From positions 1-31,839 of the forward strand of contig JBNKXM010000001.1 in the NCBI GenBank assembly GCA_050300315.1: a stretch of DNA of 31,839 nucleotides, written 5' to 3'. Positions within the stretch are counted from its first letter, which is position 1. Each line of letters begins with the position of its first letter. The notes below the pieces were generated by a model that was not told the DNA's origin, made no database searches, and saw nothing but the letters and a program-made list of their open reading frames with translations. This document shows positions 7,323 to 30,286 of the stretch, in pieces. The position numbers and the translations under genes were made by a program. The DNA comes from Thalassotalea sp. Its GTDB lineage: Bacteria > Pseudomonadota > Gammaproteobacteria > Enterobacterales > Alteromonadaceae.

Positions 7323-7368
7323 TATAGCAACTGGTCAGAGCAGTTAAAAGGATAAGGTGTGCTATGCT
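7321..7368. promoter_or_regulatory. Divergent promoter module 1 with FadR-type box AACTGGTCAGAGCAGTT (7329-7345)
   Basis: One mismatch to AACTGGTCNGACCAGTT; plus-strand extended -10 TG-C-TATGCT (7363-7368); minus-strand TG-C-TATAAT (7326-7321). Confidence 0.75.
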
Positions 7369-7383
7369 TTTGTTATTGATTAA

Positions 7384-8175
7384 ATGAGGAGAATTAAAGT
7401 GGATATTAAAAACACAAAAGTAAGTTTAAAAGGTATGACAGAAGAAGTATTCAACGCGGTTATTGCTGTGGCGAAGGCGCATGGGCTTGATTGGATGTAT
7501 CCAGATGGTGGTACACACTATAACTTGCACAAAAAAAGAAGTTTTATGCTTTTTGATGAAGTTATCACTAGCGGAGGTGATGGTTTAGCGTACAAAGAAA
7601 TCCCAGTTGAAGACTTTCTATTTAGTCTAGCTCCTGATTGGGCTGTTGATATTAGATATTTTAATGGAGTTTATCATTATACCGACAGTGTTGGTAAATA
7701 TGTCGTTATTGGTGGCTCAGAGATTTATGAGTTCAACTTAAGTGGATTCAAGATAATCGCCACCCGTAAGCAAGAACAATGGCAACCTAAAGTTGGTGGT
7801 GAATGCTTGGTTAAGCACAATGGCGACTGGCACGAAACATTCATCGTAGGCATTAGCTCATATGGTAACTACTTTTACGAGTCGTCCAAGTTTGCAGAAA
7901 CCGTGTACGACGGTAATAACATAACTTGCTTCAAACCACTACCTGAACCAACAGAAGAAGAAAAGTTAATAGATATAGCTAAAAAGGATAACGACGATTT
8001 AGTTGTAACTGAGAATTTTACACGTGCCGTAAGTGCTTTTGTAAAAGCTGGCTACTGTAAAGTTGAGCCGATTAGTAGGGAAATGTTTTTACATCAGTCA
8101 TTAATACTGGATACATCAAATGATGACTTTAGTTGGTTGGCAGAAAACAACCACATCGTAGTTAAAAAGGACTAA
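7384..8175 (+). CDS. Hypothetical accessory protein
   Basis: 263-aa ORF, first gene of plus-strand cassette 1; no family recognised with confidence. Confidence 0.7.
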   Translation: MRRIKVDIKNTKVSLKGMTEEVFNAVIAVAKAHGLDWMYPDGGTHYNLHKKRSFMLFDEVITSGGDGLAYKEIPVEDFLFSLAPDWAVDIRYFNGVYHYTDSVGKYVVIGGSEIYEFNLSGFKIIATRKQEQWQPKVGGECLVKHNGDWHETFIVGISSYGNYFYESSKFAETVYDGNNITCFKPLPEPTEEEKLIDIAKKDNDDLVVTENFTRAVSAFVKAGYCKVEPISREMFLHQSLILDTSNDDFSWLAENNHIVVKKD

Positions 8176-8178
8176 CCC

Positions 8179-8613
8179 ATGATAACCAAATCACAATACT
8201 CACAATACAGGCAATACGCAAAATATAAAGCTGGTGAAGATTACGAGGATGTACTCCAAAATGCTTTACTCAGAGCGTGGAGATTCAAAGATAATCAAGA
8301 AGGTAACTTTGATGCTTGGATCAGGAAAATAGTGTTTAATGAGTCTAATCGACGTTTTGAAAGAAGTAGTCTAGACTATTCAGATATAGACATAGAGTTA
8401 TTAAATTATGACACAGTTAGCGTTAACGATGACGAAATAACACTTAATGAATGTATTTCCACGTTACCTGACAGAGCTATGCAGTCGGTCACGCTGAGAA
8501 TACAAGGCTACACGTCAATTGAAACGGCAAAAATAATGAATGTAAAAACAGGCACTATTTGCGCTATGTGGAATAAATCAAACCAATTAATGAGGGATTT
8601 TTACAATGACTGA
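8179..8613 (+). CDS. ECF-like RNA polymerase sigma factor (regions 2 and 4)
   Basis: Region 2-like EDVLQNALLRAW...FDAWIRKIVFNES; region 4-like TLPDR...LRIQGYTSIETAKIMNVKTGT. Confidence 0.75.
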   Translation: MITKSQYSQYRQYAKYKAGEDYEDVLQNALLRAWRFKDNQEGNFDAWIRKIVFNESNRRFERSSLDYSDIDIELLNYDTVSVNDDEITLNECISTLPDRAMQSVTLRIQGYTSIETAKIMNVKTGTICAMWNKSNQLMRDFYND

Positions 8614-8866
8614 ATCAATCGAAGAATTACAAGCGATATTGGATAATGCGCCAGACATGAAAGGCATTGAACATGATGGATTTTATTATTGCACAGAATA
8701 TGGCCTCGAATATTACATATACATAATTGACGGCAATGTTTTTGTTTATGATAAAGGCTGGCGAGAAGACAAAAAATGCAATTATCCTCTAAATGAGTTT
8801 TGGACTATCAGCTCACTAGCAGACATTAAACGAATAGTTGAATTAATGAAGGAGTTACAAAAATGA
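8606..8866 (+). CDS. Hypothetical protein
   Basis: 86-aa ORF overlapping its neighbours, consistent with translational coupling. Confidence 0.65.
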   Translation: MTESIEELQAILDNAPDMKGIEHDGFYYCTEYGLEYYIYIIDGNVFVYDKGWREDKKCNYPLNEFWTISSLADIKRIVELMKELQK

Positions 8867-9096
8867 GTATTTGCACATTAGAAATAATTAAGATTAGATT
8901 AGAAGTAGCAGAAGAGCATAGCCCGTTGTCTGTGTTTAGAACTTACAAAGACGGCGAGGTCGGGCTAGATTGTGTATTTACCACAATAGAAACAAAGGCG
9001 CGTATTGCGTCAGGCGATATTAGTTATGTTGGCACTTACACAAAACATACTGATATTTTTCAAGTTCAAGAAGAATTAAGACGAGCGATTTATTGA
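8863..9096 (+). CDS. Hypothetical protein
   Basis: 77 aa, ATGA overlap, AAGGAG Shine-Dalgarno upstream. Confidence 0.65.
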   Translation: MSICTLEIIKIRLEVAEEHSPLSVFRTYKDGEVGLDCVFTTIETKARIASGDISYVGTYTKHTDIFQVQEELRRAIY

Positions 9097-9106
9097 GGGG
9101 AATGAT

Positions 9107-9490
9107 ATGAATGAAGAATTACAAAAAGCATTAGTCGAGTTGTTAAACAAAACATTGAGCGGTATTGATTCAGCCGGTGAATTTATGGCAGCACAGATTC
9201 CTGACGTAGTGCAGCAACTATTAATGTGGCATAGTGTTTACAGTCTAATTGTTTCGTCAATGTGCCTAGCGTTACTTTTCTTTGCAATAAAGCTAGATAT
9301 AAGATTGTTTTACATCACCAAGGGTCGAGACGATGAGGATTTTCTTGTTATAGGGTATTTTTTAATAGGCTCCATTGTTAGGGCAATCCTTTACGCGTTC
9401 TTGCTGAGTGGTATATCTCTTGATTGGCTACAAATATGGCTAGCGCCTAAAGTTTGGCTTTTGGAGTACGCATCGAAGTTAACCAACTAA
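9107..9490 (+). CDS. Hypothetical membrane protein (two predicted TM segments)
   Basis: 127 aa, GAGGGG RBS, two long hydrophobic stretches. Confidence 0.7.
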   Translation: MNEELQKALVELLNKTLSGIDSAGEFMAAQIPDVVQQLLMWHSVYSLIVSSMCLALLFFAIKLDIRLFYITKGRDDEDFLVIGYFLIGSIVRAILYAFLLSGISLDWLQIWLAPKVWLLEYASKLTN

Positions 9491-9516
9491 AACAAAAAGC
9501 CCCATTCTAGGGGCTT
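9490..9516 (-). terminator. Intrinsic terminator between convergent genes (U-tract on the minus strand)
   Basis: AAAACAAAAAGCCCC-ATTCTA-GGGGCTT. Confidence 0.7.
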
Positions 9517-10486: not shown

Positions 10487-10533
10487 ATAATACCACTGGT
10501 CGGAGCAGTTAATCAATAAAGGTGTGTTATAGT
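10487..10533. promoter_or_regulatory. Divergent promoter module 2 with FadR-type box CACTGGTCGGAGCAGTT (10494-10510)
   Basis: Plus-strand TG-T-TATAGT (10528-10533); minus-strand TTGATT-N18-TATTAT flanking the box. Confidence 0.75.
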
Positions 10534-10793: not shown

Positions 10794-10822
10794 AACAAAA
10801 AGCCCTCAACTGAGGGCTTTTT
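10792..10822. terminator. Bidirectional intrinsic terminator
   Basis: AAAACAAAAAGCCCTCA-AC-TGAGGGCTTTTT between convergent genes. Confidence 0.8.
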
Positions 10823-10826
10823 ACAA

Positions 10827-11319: not shown

Positions 11320-11368
11320 ATAATACCCTACTGGTTAGACCACTTCAATTGTTTGGGTGTGTTATGAT
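11320..11368. promoter_or_regulatory. Divergent promoter module 3 with FadR-type box TACTGGTTAGACCACTT (11329-11345)
   Basis: Plus-strand TG-T-TATGAT (11363-11368); minus-strand TTGAAG-N17-TATTAT. Confidence 0.75.
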
Positions 11369-12378: not shown

Positions 12379-12425
12379 ATAATATCACTGGTTAGACCAC
12401 TTGAGCAATAAAGGTGTGGTATATT
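12379..12425. promoter_or_regulatory. Divergent promoter module 4 with FadR-type box CACTGGTTAGACCACTT (12386-12402)
   Basis: Plus-strand TG-G-TATATT (12420-12425); minus-strand TTGCTC-N18-TATTAT. Confidence 0.75.
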
Positions 12426-12686: not shown

Positions 12687-12717
12687 AAAACAAAAAGCCC
12701 TATTAACCTAGGGCTTT
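12687..12717 (-). terminator. Intrinsic terminator between convergent genes
   Basis: AAAACAAAAAGCCCTA-TTAACC-TAGGGCTTT. Confidence 0.75.
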
Positions 12718-13500: not shown

Positions 13501-13871
13501 TATAGCATCCCGTTTTTTCTGGCCTTACCGCCACCAAATAACCATGTAGCAATAAACCAAGTCTTAGAGCGAAACCATCTTCCCTCGTCGCTGAGTATGT
13601 CGCTTAACACCGTAGAGGCTTGCAAGTTAGTGCATTTTGTTTTGTCATTAAAGCAGCCATCACGACATAAAACATCATGAAACAACCAGCCGAAACTATC
13701 AATATCAAACGCACCAGTTGCGCCATCATAAGGCTCATCGCTAGGCTTTATCACTACATCTTTATTGTAGCGTCTGCTATGATATGTTTTAGGCTTTATG
13801 ACCCTGTAACCAATAATTTCTTCACTACCAGTTTTTATTGGTTGTACATAATCATATATTGATTTTGTCAC
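13500..13871 (-). CDS. DUF1353-like protein
   Basis: YDGATG...WLFHDVLC...ASTVLSDIL..EG...RS..WF.AT.LFGG pattern. Confidence 0.55.
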   Translation of the reverse strand: MTKSIYDYVQPIKTGSEEIIGYRVIKPKTYHSRRYNKDVVIKPSDEPYDGATGAFDIDSFGWLFHDVLCRDGCFNDKTKCTNLQASTVLSDILSDEGRWFRSKTWFIATWLFGGGKARKNGML

Positions 13872-14098
13872 TGTTCAATTATCTCAATTGATTTACGGCA
13901 AATAGTTTGCCTAGCTTTTAACAGTTCTTGCGTGTTATAGCGCCTTTGTATTGATCCAGTACTGGCAGCATTACAGATAGTAAACTCTGCGCTTAGTATC
14001 GCAGCATCGTTAACATCAGCAGCCCTGTTAGCTATTCCAGACAGTTGAGAACAGCCGCTAGATAAAACAACTAAGAAAAAAATCATAAAAAACTTCAT
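13868..14098 (-). CDS. Small lipoprotein (possibly spanin-like)
   Basis: MK plus hydrophobic stretch plus lipobox LSSG-C; 76 aa. Confidence 0.6.
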   Translation of the reverse strand: MKFFMIFFLVVLSSGCSQLSGIANRAADVNDAAILSAEFTICNAASTGSIQRRYNTQELLKARQTICRKSIEIIEQ

Positions 14099-14114: not shown

Positions 14115-14154
14115 CACTGGTTAGACCACACAAATGATAAAAGTAGTATATCAT
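14115..14154. promoter_or_regulatory. Divergent promoter module 5 with FadR-type box CACTGGTTAGACCACAC (14115-14131)
   Basis: Plus-strand -10 TATCAT (14149-14154) at the same spacing as the other modules; opposing promoter less clear. Confidence 0.65.
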
Positions 14155-14186: not shown

Positions 14187-14378
14187 ATGTCGAGGCAAAG
14201 AGTGTACATATCAAACCAAAAGCCGAAAGATATGACTATAGAATCGTTTGAAGAGCTTGAGTATAAAGAGCTTGGTGTAATATATTGTGATATTGAAGAT
14301 AAAACAACTTGTGATGCTCCTACACAAAAACAAAAAATTAAACCATGCTTAGAAGGCAAACACGGTAAAAAGGAGTAG
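14187..14378 (+). CDS. Hypothetical protein
   Basis: 63 aa, AAGGAG RBS. Confidence 0.6.
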   Translation: MSRQRVYISNQKPKDMTIESFEELEYKELGVIYCDIEDKTTCDAPTQKQKIKPCLEGKHGKKE

Positions 14379-14383
14379 TTATA

Positions 14384-14599
14384 ATGAATATACTCGACAC
14401 GATTATTACAAAAAATGGAACCTTTAATGTTGGTGATAAATTAATAGGTGAAAGGGATGCTTCTCACAAACTGGGAATTTCAAGAGCTGAACTGAGAAAA
14501 GCTCAAGACGAATTAAGCATAAAAGGAATTATCAGTAAAGAGCACGGTAAAGTAAGGGTTATATTAAAAGATATTTACACAGGTGAGGAGGAAACATAA
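14384..14599 (+). CDS. Stand-alone GntR-family winged-HTH resembling the FadR DNA-binding domain
   Basis: F..G..L..ER..S...G.SR..LR.....L...G....EHGK pattern; AAGGAG RBS; no effector domain. Confidence 0.8.
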   Translation: MNILDTIITKNGTFNVGDKLIGERDASHKLGISRAELRKAQDELSIKGIISKEHGKVRVILKDIYTGEEET

Positions 14600-14695
14600 A
14601 TGAACAAAGAATTTGAAGAATTGCACTTTGTTTGGGTTAAGCGCTTATCGCTTGGAATTATTTTTTGTATTAGTCTCTTGGTTTGGTTGGGGTGA
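14600..14695 (+). CDS. Small membrane peptide, 31 aa (not in the ORF track)
   Basis: GAGGAGG RBS; TAAATG junction with the wHTH gene; MNKEFEELHFVWVKRLSLGIIFCISLLVWLG*. Confidence 0.55.
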   Translation: MNKEFEELHFVWVKRLSLGIIFCISLLVWLG

Positions 14696-16005: not shown

Positions 16006-16163
16006 GCCACTACGACGAACAAATAGAAGCTGACAAACTCAGACAACAACTTACTGAGCTAGACAGAGAAATTAAGCGTAACATTGAGCAAAACGCCATG
16101 TTACATAAAGAAAGAGCAGCGTTAAAGCGTGAATTATGGGAGTTGAAGGGTGATAAATTATGA
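16002..16163 (+). CDS. Small coiled-coil protein, 53 aa (not in the ORF track)
   Basis: GGAGG RBS; ATGA overlaps at both ends; heptad pattern LRQQLTELDREIKRNIEQNAMLHKERAALKRELWEL. Confidence 0.6.
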   Translation: MSHYDEQIEADKLRQQLTELDREIKRNIEQNAMLHKERAALKRELWELKGDKL

Positions 16164-16573
16164 AATACATGGGAAGCAAAGAAAGAATAGCAAAGCATAT
16201 TTTGCCTATTATCTTAAAAGATAGAAAGGAAGTCCAGTGGTATGTAGAGCCTTTTGTTGGCGGAGCTAATATGATTGATAAGGTTGACGGCAATCGTATT
16301 GGGGCTGATAGTAATAAGTATTTAATTTCTTTACTGCAGCATTGTGAAAAACAGTTAAGCCATGATTTACCTTCTAGGATTTATGAGGATGATTACAATC
16401 ATGTAAAAAACAATAAATCGGTTTATTCTGATTTTATAGTTGCCCACATAGGCTTTAACGCTAGCTTTGGCTCTAAATGGTTTGGTGGCTACGCTAGACC
16501 TAGAAAGGCTACCGGATACGATAGAGATTTGGTTTGCGGTAAAAATTCTCTTGTAAAAAAATGCACGCAGTAA
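16160..16573 (+). CDS. DNA adenine methyltransferase (Dam/D12 class), N-terminal part of a frameshifted gene
   Basis: KYMGSK and YVEPFVGGANM (motif I); frame breaks at an A7 run (16555-16561). Confidence 0.8.
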   Translation: MKYMGSKERIAKHILPIILKDRKEVQWYVEPFVGGANMIDKVDGNRIGADSNKYLISLLQHCEKQLSHDLPSRIYEDDYNHVKNNKSVYSDFIVAHIGFNASFGSKWFGGYARPRKATGYDRDLVCGKNSLVKKCTQ

Positions 16574-16884
16574 AAGGTGTAAGATTTATCGAATCAAGCT
16601 ACAGCGAGTTGGACATTCCACCCAACAGCATTATATATTGCGACCCACCATATGAAGGAACAACAAAATACAAAGATGATTTTAACCATATCTTATTCTG
16701 GCAATGGTGCAGAGAAAAGGCAAAAGAAGGTCATCAAGTGTTTATTAGCGAATATAACGCTCCAGATGATTTTGTTTGCATATGGCAGCAAGAGTTAAAT
16801 GTTTCAGTCGCTAAAAACGGAAAACATAAGAAAGCTATTGAGAAACTATTTGTTCATGAGTCTCAGAGTGTGATTAACCCCTAA
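16561..16884 (+). CDS. DNA adenine methyltransferase, C-terminal catalytic part in the -1 frame
   Basis: IIYCDPPY (motif IV), VFISEY, EKLF. Confidence 0.8.
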   Translation: MHAVKGVRFIESSYSELDIPPNSIIYCDPPYEGTTKYKDDFNHILFWQWCREKAKEGHQVFISEYNAPDDFVCIWQQELNVSVAKNGKHKKAIEKLFVHESQSVINP

Positions 16885-20942: not shown

Positions 20943-20989
20943 ATAATACAACTGGTCAGACCACTATGCAAGTAAGCGTGTGCTATAGT
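20943..20989. promoter_or_regulatory. Divergent promoter module 6 with FadR-type box AACTGGTCAGACCACTA (20950-20966)
   Basis: Plus-strand TG-C-TATAGT (20984-20989); minus-strand TTGCAT-N17-TATTAT. Confidence 0.78.
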
Positions 20990-21576: not shown

Positions 21577-22086
21577 ATGAAAATAAACAGAGCTTGGGCT
21601 ATGCCAAATAAAAATACATTTAGCATAAAGCCGATAAATGAACTAATACAGCGATATATAAATGACCGAGTTTCAATATCAATAGACCCTTTTGCAAATA
21701 CAAATAGGTTGGCTAGGTTTTGTAATGACTTAGATCCGCAGTATGGCACAGAATTTTGTATGGATGCTTTAGATTTTTTAAAATCATTTGATGACAATAG
21801 TGTCGATCTTGTCTTGTTTGATCCTCCATATAGTCCAAGACAAGTTAGTGAATGTTATAAATCATTAGATGTGACAGTAAATATACAGACAACACAAGCC
21901 AGTTTTTGGGGTAATATGAAAAAGGAGATAGAAAGAATTACCATGAGCAATGGAATAGTAATTACTTTCGGATGGAATAGCGGCGGCATAGGGAAAACAA
22001 AAGGATTTAAAATAAAAGAAATATTAATGGTTGCGCATGGGGGTTGGCATAACGACACCATATGCACAGTAGAGGTTAAGGATTAA
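21577..22086 (+). CDS. Compact DNA adenine methyltransferase
   Basis: IDPFAN (SAM-binding-like) and LVLFDPPYSPRQ (motif IV); 169 aa. Confidence 0.8.
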   Translation: MKINRAWAMPNKNTFSIKPINELIQRYINDRVSISIDPFANTNRLARFCNDLDPQYGTEFCMDALDFLKSFDDNSVDLVLFDPPYSPRQVSECYKSLDVTVNIQTTQASFWGNMKKEIERITMSNGIVITFGWNSGGIGKTKGFKIKEILMVAHGGWHNDTICTVEVKD

Positions 22087-23613: not shown

Positions 23614-23680
23614 ATTGTAAGGCTTTTGTTGTATTGGTTCAACTGGTCGGAGTTGTTGTTCGCTATTTATGTGTTAAGGT
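23614..23680. promoter_or_regulatory. Divergent promoter module 7 with FadR-type box AACTGGTCGGAGTTGTT (23641-23657)
   Basis: Plus-strand TG-T-TAAGGT (23675-23680); minus-strand TTGAAC-N17-TACAAT, whose -35 overlaps the box edge. Confidence 0.7.
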
Positions 23681-24631: not shown

Positions 24632-26765
24632 CAATAATAGGGTGGCGCTTGATAATCTCGTCAAGCGATAATGGGTTGCCGTTAATGTCACTAAACTGCT
24701 TTAACGTCAATCCACCCTCTTTAAATAGTTTAAACCTCTTAGCGCCTAGCGTATCTTTAATATAATAATCTGGCTGTTCGCGTAGCCACTTATCAAGAGG
24801 TGTATTCGCGGCTATCTGCTCAGGCGTGAAGATGTTCTTGTCTTTTTTGCCGCGGTATCTTACTTGGCTTTTAGTTCGCAACCTTGATTTTCTTTCGTTG
24901 AATGCTTCCTCGCCACTTTCTTTAGCGCCTAAAGCCGCGCGTGTGCCAACTGGATCTAATCCTTTTGGCACGGCTATACGTCTTGTGCGGCAATTGTGAA
25001 CAACAATATTATCAATTAGATAAGTGTTATCATCTTCAACCTCTAAGTTGTAAACGTCCTTGTTATATTCTACAATTGAAATGTCACTTACAATTGAGGT
25101 ATTCCAATTATGTTTAAAGGTAGCGATCTTACCAACAAAGATTTCTTTCACTCTTTTCTTAAAGAACACAACCACATTAGAAGAAAAACACTTCGCGCTA
25201 TCGAGCGCGAATTTAATCTTGCTAACGGAACTATGAGTAGATGGTGCCGAGTGCATGACATTAAACCTCTTAGTAAGTCCGAGGCTGCTAGAGAGGCTGC
25301 AAAAATTAAGGTGTCTAATGGTTTGTGTGTTGGCTCTAACCATTGGGCTTATGGTATGACCAAGAAAACCTCCGAAATTCATGCTAGGCATTCTGAAAGG
25401 ATGGCTAGCAACAACCCTGTCCATAACCCCAAGACTAAAGCAAAGATCTTGGCAACTATGAGAGATATTTACAGGGAAACAAAAGTTTTTGGCGAAGAAT
25501 CTTTCAAGGAGTTCTTTGGCGATTCCTTTTTTATCCATCAATATATTATTGGAGATTCCATTAGGGATTTTGTCAATGTCGAGAACAAGATCGTTGTCGA
25601 GATCGATGGAAGAGGCCACGCTTCCAGATTCGAAAGCGACCTTAGTAAAGACCTCTTCGCTATCGAACAAGGATGGGTAATCATACGGGTTAGCTTCGAC
25701 AACAGGCGACCTATTAGTGATTGGACTTTTCTCTCCGTAGTACTCAAAAAGATGATCCCCAACTTTGATTTCATCGGCTCTGACCCATCCAGCCCCATCA
25801 AGAAGTACAGGATGCTCATCCGTAACTCTGATTTCCCTACCGGATTTAAAACGAATAACCCTTATGACGCTAGAATCGTTAGACTTTCTCATAACAGTTA
25901 ATACTTTTTTAAATCTACCTTTATGAGTTAAAACCTCATCACCAACGGCAACTTCCTCTATCGGTTTGTTGCCGTTTTTAGTTAAAACCCTTTCACCTTC
26001 CGCGACAGCATTGAAATGCAACGGAGGGCGTGGTGCTTTTAGATCGTTAACTGAAAACCTACGCGACTTTTCATTCATTGTGCTGATTGACTGACAAATA
26101 TTTGACGTTCTTGAATCAAATACTATGACATAGAAATACTCATCAAGAACATCTTTATTATCGTTTATCATAGCTTCGTTAGCTGCTGCTGCATAATGCT
26201 GATAACCAGTACGAGCTAATGCCTCTGCTTCACGTTTTAGCACACCATCAAACGTTGTGCGAATATCGCGTGACATTTCGTTAATAGTTGCGCCGCGAGA
26301 ATACCCGGTCTTAACAATGCCGTTAATCGCACGTTTACGGCTATCTAAATTAGCATGATAAAACTCTGACCATGTACCAGCATTAACGCGCTTACCACTT
26401 TCTAGTGACATTAACGCGTTGTTAACGTATGAAGCTATTTTCTTTTCTGCTGGCGTTGATAGCTTGCTAGCAATAGCGGCACCGATAAATTGAGCTTGCC
26501 ATTGTGCTTCGTAGGTTGCGAGGGGCAACAAAGACTCATTAGTCATTGTTAACCAACCACCGTTATCCTCGATAGCTTTATTGATCGCAACTAATACTCT
26601 ATTGAGTTGAGCTTTGGTTGTGATTGATTCTTCAGCCTGGAGTAATTGACGAATAGCTTTGTAGGTGTCAACTAATGACGGATAAACATACGAGTTTATG
26701 CCGCCACTAGCTAAGCGATTGATATATAATTCGTGTTGCAGGAATTCATCGAGGTTTAGAGCCAT
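24609..26765 (-). CDS. Head morphogenesis / minor capsid protein (Mu gpF / SPP1 gp7 family), intein-containing precursor; predicted spliced product 379 aa
   Basis: AEALARTGY, VFDSRTSNIC and the split PPLHFN|CRTRRI motif. Confidence 0.9.
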   Translation of the reverse strand: MALNLDEFLQHELYINRLASGGINSYVYPSLVDTYKAIRQLLQAEESITTKAQLNRVLVAINKAIEDNGGWLTMTNESLLPLATYEAQWQAQFIGAAIASKLSTPAEKKIASYVNNALMSLESGKRVNAGTWSEFYHANLDSRKRAINGIVKTGYSRGATINEMSRDIRTTFDGVLKREAEALARTGYQHYAAAANEAMINDNKDVLDEYFYVIVFDSRTSNICQSISTMNEKSRRFSVNDLKAPRPPLHFNAVAEGERVLTKNGNKPIEEVAVGDEVLTHKGRFKKVLTVMRKSNDSSVIRVIRFKSGREIRVTDEHPVLLDGAGWVRADEIKVGDHLFEYYGEKSPITNRSPVVEANPYDYPSLFDSEEVFTKVAFESGSVASSIDLDNDLVLDIDKIPNGISNNILMDKKGIAKELLERFFAKNFCFPVNISHSCQDLCFSLGVMDRVVASHPFRMPSMNFGGFLGHTISPMVRANTQTIRHLNFCSLSSSLGLTKRFNVMHSAPSTHSSVSKIKFALDSAKCFSSNVVVFFKKRVKEIFVGKIATFKHNWNTSIVSDISIVEYNKDVYNLEVEDDNTYLIDNIVVHNCRTRRIAVPKGLDPVGTRAALGAKESGEEAFNERKSRLRTKSQVRYRGKKDKNIFTPEQIAANTPLDKWLREQPDYYIKDTLGAKRFKLFKEGGLTLKQFSDINGNPLSLDEIIKRHPIIARRVGVE
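25048..25100 (+). promoter_or_regulatory. Antisense sigma70-like promoter and Shine-Dalgarno site inside the intein coding sequence
   Basis: TTGTAA (25048-25053), N17, TACAAT (25071-25076); GAGGT (25096-25100) 9 nt before ATG 25110. Confidence 0.65.
25110..25901 (+). CDS. Putative homing endonuclease (HTH plus NUMOD3-like repeats plus DUF559/Vsr-like EDxHD nuclease) encoded antisense within the intein
   Basis: LRAIEREFNLANGTMSRW; GSNHWAYG and SNNPVHNPKTKAKI; QYIIG...DF....KIVVEIDGRGH......D..KD....EQGWVIIRV; has its own promoter and RBS. Confidence 0.85.
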   Translation: MFKGSDLTNKDFFHSFLKEHNHIRRKTLRAIEREFNLANGTMSRWCRVHDIKPLSKSEAAREAAKIKVSNGLCVGSNHWAYGMTKKTSEIHARHSERMASNNPVHNPKTKAKILATMRDIYRETKVFGEESFKEFFGDSFFIHQYIIGDSIRDFVNVENKIVVEIDGRGHASRFESDLSKDLFAIEQGWVIIRVSFDNRRPISDWTFLSVVLKKMIPNFDFIGSDPSSPIKKYRMLIRNSDFPTGFKTNNPYDARIVRLSHNS

Positions 26766-27737: not shown

Positions 27738-28307
27738 TTAACCATTTATGTTTGTCGATAAAGCTGGCGCTGTGATGTTTGTTGATAATGCGATTGCTGT
27801 GATGTTTGTTTCGCTCACAACAGTAAAATCAAACGCGCCTATCTGAATAAAATCATTATTAACTACCGATAAACTATTGATAGTTGAATCATTGACGATC
27901 AACTCACCAAATAAAATAATGCTGTCGATATTTACTATCGAGCTTGTGTTAGATGTTTGCTCGCTTATGTTAAAAGCGCCAACTGTCAATATACTGTCGT
28001 TATTAGCAGAAGAGCTTGAATTTGTGGCTGAATCGCTAATATTAACTGTCGAAGCAAAACTAATTGTATCGTTATTGCATATTGATTGGCTGTTAGTTGA
28101 GCTATCATCAATTAAAAAAGCACCACCTGATATAACATCAGCATTTACATTGCTATTTGAATTTGTTGTCGAATCGTTTATTAATACGGTCGATGACAAC
28201 GAAATATTATCGTTGTTAACTATCGATGATGAATTATTAGCGCCGTCATTAATTGATACTGATCCGCTTACCCATATATTAGGAGACTGCCATACATTTA
28301 CGCTCAC
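27738..28307 (-). CDS. Repeat protein (about six tandem 24-aa units), probable fibre or beta-solenoid
   Basis: Consensus xxxxxI(N/S)DSxxNSxSxxNNDxIxx. Confidence 0.65.
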   Translation of the reverse strand: MSVNVWQSPNIWVSGSVSINDGANNSSSIVNNDNISLSSTVLINDSTTNSNSNVNADVISGGAFLIDDSSTNSQSICNNDTISFASTVNISDSATNSSSSANNDSILTVGAFNISEQTSNTSSIVNIDSIILFGELIVNDSTINSLSVVNNDFIQIGAFDFTVVSETNITAIALSTNITAPALSTNING

Positions 28308-30286
28308 ACTGTCACACCTTCAATATAAGCACCATTAGAACTTGGGTCTAACCCATCATCAACATAACCTTTTATTCGTGATCCTGACACTATCGGTAGC
28401 GATTGACTGCCTGTTTCGCTAGTGTATGTTATGCTACCCCTAAACAATCTATTACCATTTTCATCATCTAATACTGTCGTAAATGAACCATCTGTCATTC
28501 CAGTTATAGACAAATTCAATATTGAACTAAAGAATGCAGCATCAATGCCATTAAACAACGCAGACGCGACATTCGCTGTATCTACATCTGCTTCGTAATG
28601 AACTCCAGTGAATACCGCGGACATATCAACGTATTCTAATGCGTTAGAGTTTGTTGATACTATATCCTGCATCCACTGGTTTACATTCGTACCGTTGGCT
28701 TGTGCTATCCCGCATATTACGCTGCCCTTTCCTGTTAACGTAGCTAACTGGTCTATGACTGCATTATATTGTGTTTTAAATGTAGCTTCTATGGTTCCTG
28801 TATCTGCGTCTGTTTCCCCTATCCAAGAGCAAACACCCTCAACGTCATTACCTCCAGAGTTAGTTAAATAATCTAACATACGATTATTGAATGTCCCTCC
28901 AGTCTGCCACTGCGAAAGAGCTGTACTTCCCTGTGCTACACCAATAAAACCCACAGGTATGGATTTATCTGCCACTAATAAATTAGCTAGGATTGGAAAT
29001 AATGAACCTGATGAGGTTGCCGTATCAAACGGATCTCCGCCTATTTGCCATGCGTCATTTGTAACAGTGTATTTATGAAAAAATCCTGCTGCCCCAGTAT
29101 AAGTTTGTGCGTTTGTCGCTCTACCAGAAAAGTTGCTTTGCCCCCAAAATAAAAACTTAGCACCTATAGCTATATTTGGCTGAGTAGACGTTACGCTAAC
29201 ATCATTGACAAATCTAACTACCAAATCACCATTGCCGACATCTTGCGCTGCTAATGTTCCACTATATGTTCCGCCTGAGGGGGCAGCATCAATTGTGGCA
29301 AACGCGCCGCCGTTAAAACTAGCTTCTATCGCTGTTGGTACTACCGCTCCGCTGTATGTACCATTAATAATAATATCTGCTTTGTTTGTTGCTACAGTTC
29401 TGCCAATAAAGGTAAATTCAGCAGGATTTATAATTGCGATAACATTAGCCACTGTTAGCTGCAACCCTATGTTAGTCCCACCAGTGCCTGTACCATCTAA
29501 TAACCCGCCAGTTTTAGAAGTCCATATATCATTAACAGTATCGGTAAAATCAGCGGTAGTAACACCCGTTACCGCTCCAGAACCATGAGCTGTGGCATCA
29601 CCAGACGCACAACTTAATAATGTTGCGCTTGTACCCTCGTAGTCCTTAACACCATTACCATAACAAACTGTAGAATCGTGAGTATTATTTGCTTTTTCGG
29701 TTATACCGCCGTGAAAAGTTGAATTTGTAGTATTGCAACCCTCAATAACACAATGTTTTGTCGTAAATCCGTCACCATTAGACCACAAACCTGATTTAGT
29801 GGAACCTGTAATATGACAGTTCTCGAAATGGTATAAAGCTGTGTTACTAGATCGACCCCTGATTGCAGACTCACCACCAACAATTTTACATTCGTAAAAT
29901 TCAGCGTCTTGGTCTGCGAATATATCAACACCTATTGGATTGTCTGGATTGTCTGGATTAGAAGGCGAAACTGAGGTGGATTCTATCTCGAACCCTCTCG
30001 TGATGAATTTACTAGTAGTCCTGTTGTATAGAGCAAAACCGCTAGATGCGGTTATTTTTATGTGTGCTGCTGCTGGATTATCGAAATTGTATGCTACTCC
30101 ACTAGCTGCTCTTAGCTCTGCACCTCCACTGTTTGCTTTAGCAGCTAAAGTTGCTACAGATATAGTGCCTGAGTCTACATACTCACCAATGTAGCGATTA
30201 CCGTCATCTAATACGGCGTTAGCCCACCATAATTCAATGGTTTCGTAATCCTGTCCGACACCAATTGTGTTAATAATATCTGCCAT
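28304..30286 (-). CDS. Virion-associated enzyme: right-handed beta-helix-like domain plus sialate O-acetylesterase (SASA/SGNH) domain
   Basis: Parallel beta-helix-type repeats (FYECKI, HFENCHI, TTKHCVI) followed by FWGQSNFSG, WIGETD and GVHY. Confidence 0.72.
   Translation of the reverse strand: MADIINTIGVGQDYETIELWWANAVLDDGNRYIGEYVDSGTISVATLAAKANSGGAELRAASGVAYNFDNPAAAHIKITASSGFALYNRTTSKFITRGFEIESTSVSPSNPDNPDNPIGVDIFADQDAEFYECKIVGGESAIRGRSSNTALYHFENCHITGSTKSGLWSNGDGFTTKHCVIEGCNTTNSTFHGGITEKANNTHDSTVCYGNGVKDYEGTSATLLSCASGDATAHGSGAVTGVTTADFTDTVNDIWTSKTGGLLDGTGTGGTNIGLQLTVANVIAIINPAEFTFIGRTVATNKADIIINGTYSGAVVPTAIEASFNGGAFATIDAAPSGGTYSGTLAAQDVGNGDLVVRFVNDVSVTSTQPNIAIGAKFLFWGQSNFSGRATNAQTYTGAAGFFHKYTVTNDAWQIGGDPFDTATSSGSLFPILANLLVADKSIPVGFIGVAQGSTALSQWQTGGTFNNRMLDYLTNSGGNDVEGVCSWIGETDADTGTIEATFKTQYNAVIDQLATLTGKGSVICGIAQANGTNVNQWMQDIVSTNSNALEYVDMSAVFTGVHYEADVDTANVASALFNGIDAAFFSSILNLSITGMTDGSFTTVLDDENGNRLFRGSITYTSETGSQSLPIVSGSRIKGYVDDGLDPSSNGAYIEGVTV

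Follow-up and report, generated by a model that had tools for sequence, protein, structure and literature searches.

The 31,839-nt stretch of a Thalassotalea sp. assembly analysed here (the window) holds a phage gene for a 71-residue protein predicted to be a FadR-type winged-helix DNA-binding domain, and seven phage cassettes that each open with a FadR-type box placed at a fixed distance from a -10 hexamer. We consider it reasonably probable that host FadR reads these fabA-like phage promoters and that the phage protein, which we call mini-FadR, would serve as a ligand-blind occupant of the same boxes. What is new is a FadR head encoded by a phage, together with its link to the boxes; within a literature collection that is itself incomplete, we found no description of FadR-dependent phage promoters or of phage FadR-like proteins.

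A conserved, free-standing DNA-binding head

Mini-FadR is encoded by the second gene of a cassette that lies behind the fifth of the seven boxes. The gene and its plus-strand neighbours are as follows:

14187..14378 (+), 63-aa ORF that opens cassette 5, without a family match; 5 nt separate its stop from the mini-FadR start
14369..14374 (+), Shine-Dalgarno sequence AAGGAG, 9 nt 5' of the mini-FadR ATG, read from the sequence
14384..14599 (+), mini-FadR gene, 71-aa stand-alone GntR/FadR-type winged helix-turn-helix without an effector domain
14600..14695 (+), 31-aa hydrophobic ORF whose ATG abuts the mini-FadR TAA; not an effector domain

On the opposite strand, a 76-aa ORF (13868-14098, -) that matches no family but has a lipoprotein-type signal (MKFFMIFFLVVLSSGC) begins 19 nt from box 5.

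The window protein matches the Pfam GntR model (PF00392) with E=3.7e-5 and 23.8 bits, slightly below the cut-off of 27 bits, and the family member P0037 scores 52.6 bits. A short frame that scores under a curated cut-off could be a chance or decaying ORF, but we give this reading a negligible probability, and it is refuted by conservation. A 9-kb contig of a related phage (L005), in which minus-strand virion genes are broken up by plus-strand cassettes as in the window, carries an orthologue (P0003) of the same 71-aa length and 65% identity; between the two genes synonymous sites are saturated (pS 0.83), pN is 0.26, and pN/pS is 0.31. On the strength of this orthologue and its pattern of substitution, we conclude that the mini-FadR ORF is a real, conserved gene under selection. 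The strong ribosome-binding site, the tight coupling to neighbouring ORFs and the existence of related clusters in other phages argue against a chance frame as well.

Searched exhaustively with HMMER, 1.84 billion representatives yielded 34 matches to mini-FadR, and the family amounts to about 15 clusters of rare stand-alone phage proteins, 70-86 aa in length, among 5.8 billion proteins. Members of 77-86 aa comprise P0005, P0008, P0014, P0015, P0021, P0036-P0039 and two from IMG/VR. No family member has an effector domain. The wing H-G-K is common to the members, and their acidic C-terminal tail has the pattern KD[IV]F.SEEH plus a final F, Y or W; the window protein (region of residues 62-71) has YTGEEET at this place. 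This tail has no FadR counterpart and could serve dimerisation or protein contact. Some relatives string GntR heads in tandem along a single chain (tandem-head and related proteins listed are P0010, P0007, P0009, P0017, P0002 and P0004): the 159-aa P0010 has two phage-type heads, a hint that heads act pairwise, three-head relatives are about 225 aa long, and relatives of 744 and 1147 aa contain 6 and 10 matched stretches, respectively. Searching 50,697 deposited phage genomes with mini-FadR by tblastn gave no matches, nor did scanning IMG/VR with the window protein or P0008 as protein queries, and a word-based protein search with mini-FadR recovered only mini-FadR itself.

Mini-FadR resembles the DNA-binding domain of FadR

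In a phmmer search of the PDB, residues 11-58 of mini-FadR pair with residues 22-69 of FadR from Vibrio and E. coli in an ungapped alignment, an offset of 11 that recurs when BLASTP aligns the protein with the host bin's own FadR (37% identity over 46 residues). The alignment equates R24 with FadR R35, S33 with T44, R34 with R45, A35 with T46, E36 with T47 and R38 with R49, and the wing residues H54-G55-K56 with H65-G66-K67. FadR contacts DNA through R35, T44, R45, T46, T47, R49 and H65 (PMC4259882); four of these seven (R35, R45, R49 and H65) are retained and do not vary across the family core, serine replaces T44, and the positions of T46 and T47 vary within the family. FadR residues W60, F74 and W75, reported as necessary for DNA binding (PMC4259882), have no mini-FadR counterpart. 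The N-terminal M-I-I-K-A...FA..YI motif of FadR is present in some family members.

Profile searches rank FadR first. When a profile of eight family members was searched against the PDB, the top six matches were true FadR sequences (2.1e-11 to 7.4e-11), followed by the FCD proteins Cgl2915, PdhR and Rv0494 (3e-10 to 2e-8); other GntR types came in at about 1e-6 or weaker and HutC-type proteins at about 1e-5, and the lead of FadR over other FCD heads is only 4-5 bits. Within the host bin, the best cellular match of the profile is the bin's own FadR, with PdhR second. A word-based search outside the mini-FadR family returns true FadR fragments, and the full-length proteins nearest to mini-FadR as a single query include both FCD and UTRA types. 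In a maximum-likelihood tree of DNA-binding heads, the backbone is a polytomy that does not fix the position of the family; AU tests weakly favour a grouping with FadR (p=0.21, compared with p=0.057 for UTRA and p=0.033 for other FCD proteins).

An AF2 model computed from a 30-row alignment (pLDDT 72) predicts helices at residues 3-11, 23-30 and 34-46 and strands at 50-51 and 59-60, corresponding to the GntR winged-helix fold of three helices and a two-stranded wing; the model from the single sequence (pLDDT 48) was too low in confidence for use. Foldseek comparison of the predicted fold with the PDB finds FadR N-domains best (TM about 0.7), and the top matches are all GntR heads (TM 0.6-0.75). 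Prediction of a homodimer from two copies and a 30-row alignment scored 0.00, which counts neither for nor against dimerisation.

The chain stops 15 residues past the wing. No Pfam domain was detected C-terminal to the wing in the window protein, and the all-helical C-terminal domain (PF07729/PF07840) that binds effector and mediates oligomerisation is absent. Judged from its sequence and modelled fold, the window protein is thus a FadR-type winged-helix DNA-binding domain without a sensor. Because the domain that defines the subfamily is absent, however, mini-FadR is a FadR-like head and not a member of the FadR subfamily.

These results bear out most of what an earlier note had read from the DNA. 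It described a 71-aa winged helix with a strong ribosome-binding site behind box 5, and the frame, the Shine-Dalgarno sequence and the position in the cassette are all as claimed; its mapping of R24, R34 and H54-G55-K56 onto FadR agrees with both alignments, the loss of Thr46 and Thr47 is seen in A35 and E36, and its description of a DNA-binding domain that lacks the sensor accords with the Pfam, profile and fold results. The FadR-type grouping that it proposed stands as far as the profile ranking goes, but not as a phylogenetic placement, given the polytomy in the tree and the missing effector domain.

Seven cassettes open with composite promoters of fixed geometry

All seven boxes that the earlier note had called exist. 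Each forms a composite promoter with a downstream -10 hexamer:

7331..7368 (+), box 1 composite promoter: CTGGTCAGAGCA, 20 nt, TGcTATGCT
10496..10533 (+), box 2 composite promoter: CTGGTCGGAGCA, 20 nt, TGtTATAGT
11331..11368 (+), box 3 composite promoter: CTGGTTAGACCA, 20 nt, TGtTATGAT
12388..12425 (+), box 4 composite promoter: CTGGTTAGACCA, 20 nt, TGgTATATT
14117..14154 (+), box 5 composite promoter of the mini-FadR cassette: CTGGTTAGACCA at 14117-14128, 20 nt, TATCAT at 14149-14154, TG extension absent
20952..20989 (+), box 6 composite promoter: CTGGTCAGACCA, 20 nt, TGcTATAGT; closest of the seven to the published consensus for FadR
23641..23680 (+), box 7 composite promoter: AACTGGTCGGAGTTGTT, 20 nt, -10 hexamer TAAGGT

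All seven plus-strand cassettes open with aCTGGTyrGAsCA, exactly 20 nt and a -10 hexamer, mostly TGnTAnnnT, and about 25-35 nt separate the hexamer from the ribosome-binding site and start codon. The left half of the box, CTGGTC/T, is invariant, and the right half is variable and often far from palindromic; four of the seven boxes are perfect TGGT-N3-ACCA palindromes. Exact TGGT-N3-ACCA occurs five times in the window against 0.29 expected, a count that none of 100 shuffles reached. One exact match, TGGTATGACCA at 25352, is intragenic with no -10 hexamer at the proper distance and was set aside as probably due to chance. A histogram of box-to-(-10) spacings has a sharp peak at 20 nt (8 window cases plus 22 from other lineages; background, 0-6), and the box 5 promoter has a homologue at L005:4368.

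The centre of the box lies 26 nt 5' of the first -10 base, at about -38 relative to the start inferred from the -10 hexamers. None of the seven box promoters has a -35 hexamer, a sigma-70 scan called none of them, and canonical -35/-10 promoters are not enriched. The spacing rules out the box as a sigma-54 element or as a -35 element.

Cassette 1 (7384-9490) includes an ECF-like sigma factor (8179-8613, +, 144 aa; Sigma70_r2 26.6 bits, r4_2 weak, PHROG 'RNA polymerase sigma factor' 1.4e-15), whose targets are perhaps the minus-strand virion gene promoters. Since the protein has sigma-70 r2 and r4 regions and the box promoters have no sigma-70 -35 hexamer, the box and -10 hexamer might together form the promoter that this sigma factor recognises, with mini-FadR unrelated. 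We regard this as very improbable: the conserved CTGGTC, 26 nt 5' of the -10 hexamer, is too distant to act as a -35 element, the -10 hexamers are of the common extended sigma-70 kind, these boxes recur in P22-like and lambdoid loci in which no sigma factor was called, and the sigma gene itself stands behind a box.

Several further features of the window were noted. Two candidate leftward sigma-70 promoters (10487-10516, -, TTGATT-18-TATTAT; 11320-11348, -, TTGAAG-17-TATTAT) have spacers that are exactly boxes 2 and 3, so that one bound protein could affect both divergent promoters. GC-rich hairpins at 9497-9516, 10795-10824 and 12694-12717, of the form AAAGCCC...GGGCTTT followed by a T-run, lie at several cassette ends and resemble shared, partly bidirectional terminators. 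The window also contains a Dam-like D12 methyltransferase (16160-16884, +) split into two overlapping frames of 137 and 107 aa, a second methyltransferase at 21577-22086, and, between terminase and head genes, a 660-aa protein (28304-30286, -) with a SASA (sialate O-acetylesterase-like) carbohydrate esterase domain.

Phage boxes match host FadR operators

We compared the phage boxes with FadR sites from the literature and from the host bin, to which the contig is linked by binning and by similar G+C content (39.6% vs 40.0%). The boxes fit the published 17-bp consensus operator of E. coli FadR, aaCTGGTCnGACC(T/A)Gtt (PMC9329746). Upstream of fabA in the host bin stands AACTGTTCGGAGTTGTT, followed after 21 nt by TAAAGT; box 7 is identical to this site at 16 of 17 positions, with a -10 spacing of 20 nt instead of 21 nt, and at 15 of 17 positions to the EMSA-verified fabA site of S. 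oneidensis, AGCTGATCGGAGTTGTTT (PMC4537474). Other host-bin sites with the box core adjoin genes for an enoyl-CoA hydratase, a FadH-like reductase and thioesterases, and the site at the reductase gene, CTGGTTAGACC, is identical to the core of boxes 3-5. By sequence, the phage boxes are therefore FadR-type operators, indistinguishable from host FadR sites.

FadR represses from a site over the transcription start and activates from a site just 5' of the -35 position (PMC9329746). The phage boxes, about 38 nt 5' of the inferred start and beside the -35 position, have the activation geometry of fabA. As read from these coordinates, the placement is that of the host FadR-activated fabA promoter and not a repression layout.

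Mini-FadR genes and boxes co-occur across unrelated phages

Nearly all of the mini-FadR-encoding phage lineages sampled carry composite promoters with the 20-nt spacing, in a small sample of about 10 lineages besides the window whose contigs are often fragments:

L005, 3 composite promoters
L007-L010, 2 composite promoters, one 60 nt 5' of the gene
L011, 1-2 composite promoters
L136, about 9 composite promoters
L142, 3 composite promoters
L137, 2 composite promoters
L139, 3 composite promoters
G002, 3 composite promoters
G003, 3 composite promoters
L239, 1 composite promoter, overlapping the stop codon of the mini-FadR family gene

Family-encoding loci have 25.6 composite promoters per 100 kb, whereas the host bin has 1.1 and control viral loci have 2.9, and in the window, L005, L007, G002 and G003 the mini-FadR gene lies 60-270 nt 3' of a box promoter. 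Starting instead from the box, a 15-mer scan of IMG/VR found four contigs with multiple matches, three of which have the family gene beside the box. The exact 14-mer ACTGGTTAGACCAC gave 117 single matches in IMG/VR, a chance level, with a family gene beside none of them. The gene and the boxes thus co-occur across otherwise unrelated phages, whether the search begins from the gene or from the box.

The association is not obligate. A complete genome with terminal repeats (G001) has three box promoters and no GntR-like gene, and a second contig, 86% complete, likewise has no GntR-like gene. In G001, a relative of G002 and G003, the mini-FadR position is taken by an unrelated 118-aa ORF with no Pfam match (L224:18050-18403), possibly a non-orthologous replacement. 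No box was found within the 8.6 kb of sequence at hand around the tandem-domain relative P0010. Differences in the recognition helix were not seen to covary with the variable right half of the box; proteins with differing helices go with the same box type. Since G001 keeps its boxes without the gene, the boxes do not require the phage protein, and host FadR is probably their primary reader. The co-occurrence of gene and boxes that the earlier note had proposed to check is accordingly upheld from both sides as a tendency, but the complete G001 genome limits it.

Genomic context raises the question of whether the protein serves the boxes at all. In family members from lambdoid and P22-like marine phage contigs, the gene mostly lies right behind DnaB or DnaC-like genes, Pfam weakly matches the window protein to the winged helix of Phage_rep_O (E=0.029), and boxes are present in phages without the gene; mini-FadR might therefore be a winged-helix accessory of replication or of another process, linked only incidentally to boxes that are a common marine phage promoter type. 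We judge this quite unlikely. The positions that never vary in the family are those with which FadR reads DNA, the boxes conform to the FadR consensus, and the FadR matches are far stronger than the one to Rep_O. Moreover, in the window and L005 the gene stands away from replication genes; its cassette changes, yet the box promoter is retained.

Alternatively, the boxes might be read by host FadR only, with mini-FadR acting on host fad/fab operators regardless of acyl-CoA, or poisoning host FadR, so as to fix lipid metabolism. This accords with the box promoters of G001, with the core that host sites share with the phage boxes and with the lack of a ligand domain. Nevertheless, this very rare family turns up beside box promoters in roughly half the sampled phages that use boxes, its gene is often directly behind a box, and a protein that binds host sites should bind the near-identical phage sites as well, making action on the host alone unlikely.

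A proposed model for box occupancy by host FadR and mini-FadR

FadR is able to bind DNA unless long-chain acyl-CoA is present. In the model that we favour, in which both host FadR and mini-FadR use the boxes, host FadR would bind the phage boxes on infection and help RNA polymerase to fire the cassettes, including cassette 5. Mini-FadR would then build up and fill the same boxes, probably as a pair of heads on each. Lacking an acyl-CoA pocket, it would occupy them independently of host lipid state, and also of the limited supply of host FadR. By filling box 5, mini-FadR would feed back on its own synthesis, which is plausible because the gene lies directly 3' of a box promoter in at least five lineages. 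An occupant of boxes 2 and 3 could also block virion-strand initiation from the candidate leftward promoters.

The earlier note had suggested that mini-FadR could set the timing of the seven switches through feedback on its own promoter, and that it may rewire host fad/fab genes. The position of the gene behind a box agrees with the proposed feedback, but the boxes are probably read first by host FadR, with mini-FadR as a modulator that such phages can do without. As to the sense of the modulation, mini-FadR is probably a ligand-blind surrogate or competitor of host FadR. The odds are near even between a surrogate activator that would keep the promoters on and a Cro-like competitor that would turn them off in negative feedback: activation is favoured by the fixed spacing and the fabA geometry, whereas a competitor role fits the strong extended -10 elements of the window phage and the boxes that function without the gene. 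Cross-binding of mini-FadR to host fad/fab operators is possible because phage and host sites are alike.

Comparison with known regulators

Among characterised systems, mini-FadR is closest to FadR itself (E. coli, Vibrio and Shewanella; PDB 1H9T, 1HW2, 4P9U), its best match in both sequence and structure. The two share the winged-helix fold, R35, R45, R49 and the wing tip H65-G66-K67, an operator of the aaCTGGTCnGACC type, and boxes placed as at the FadR-activated fabA promoter. They differ in that mini-FadR lacks the acyl-CoA-binding, dimerising C-terminal domain (about 165 residues), does not retain T46 and T47, has a shorter helix 1 in the window phage, and belongs to a family with its own acidic tail (KDIF.SEEH and an aromatic residue). 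Mini-FadR is also phage-encoded and may regulate itself, whereas FadR is reported to be non-autoregulating (PMC9329746).

Isolated GntR DNA-binding domains have been crystallised on their operators (NagR/YvoA, 4U0Y; AraR, 4EGY; PdhR 1-75, 5KVR; LutR-DBD, 8PQM), and all of them are found among the sequence or fold matches of mini-FadR. Like it, they comprise about 70-80 residues with no effector domain, and two such heads can fill one palindromic operator; unlike it, they are laboratory truncations and not the product of a natural, selected, free-standing phage gene. The smallest natural GntR proteins known, the short YtrA type (Lmo0741, PDB 4R1H; Cgl2947, 2EK5), also have a reduced C-terminal part. 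They nonetheless keep about 50 residues that form a two-helix dimerisation domain, compared with a tail of about 10 residues past the mini-FadR wing, and score far lower in the family profile search (E about 4e-4). Lambda Cro, Mu Mor/C and T4 MotA offer functional parallels as small phage DNA binders with a repeated box at many phage promoters: Cro shuts early transcription, Mor and MotA substitute for the -35 contact, and either logic resembles what we propose for mini-FadR. None of them is homologous to mini-FadR, however, and the box in the present phages is in addition a host-regulator site, which the phage protein would have to share with a host factor.

Implications

A broader and more tentative reading, to which we would give slightly less than an even chance, is that unrelated marine phages mimic the host fabA promoter so that host FadR activates phage operons, and that a subset of them captured the FadR head and pared it down to a ligand-blind protein of 70-86 aa. 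This protein would take over the phage sites, and possibly host fad/fab sites, freeing phage timing from the fatty-acid signal.

If true, phage gene expression would be tied to host lipid status through a well-understood regulator, and mini-FadR would exemplify the viral hijack of a host switch by keeping its DNA-reading head and dropping its sensor. It would also constitute a natural GntR class without any effector domain. The system bears on how FadR activates from a position near -40, as well as on whether fatty acids in seawater modulate phage infection of Vibrio-, Shewanella- and Alteromonas-like hosts.
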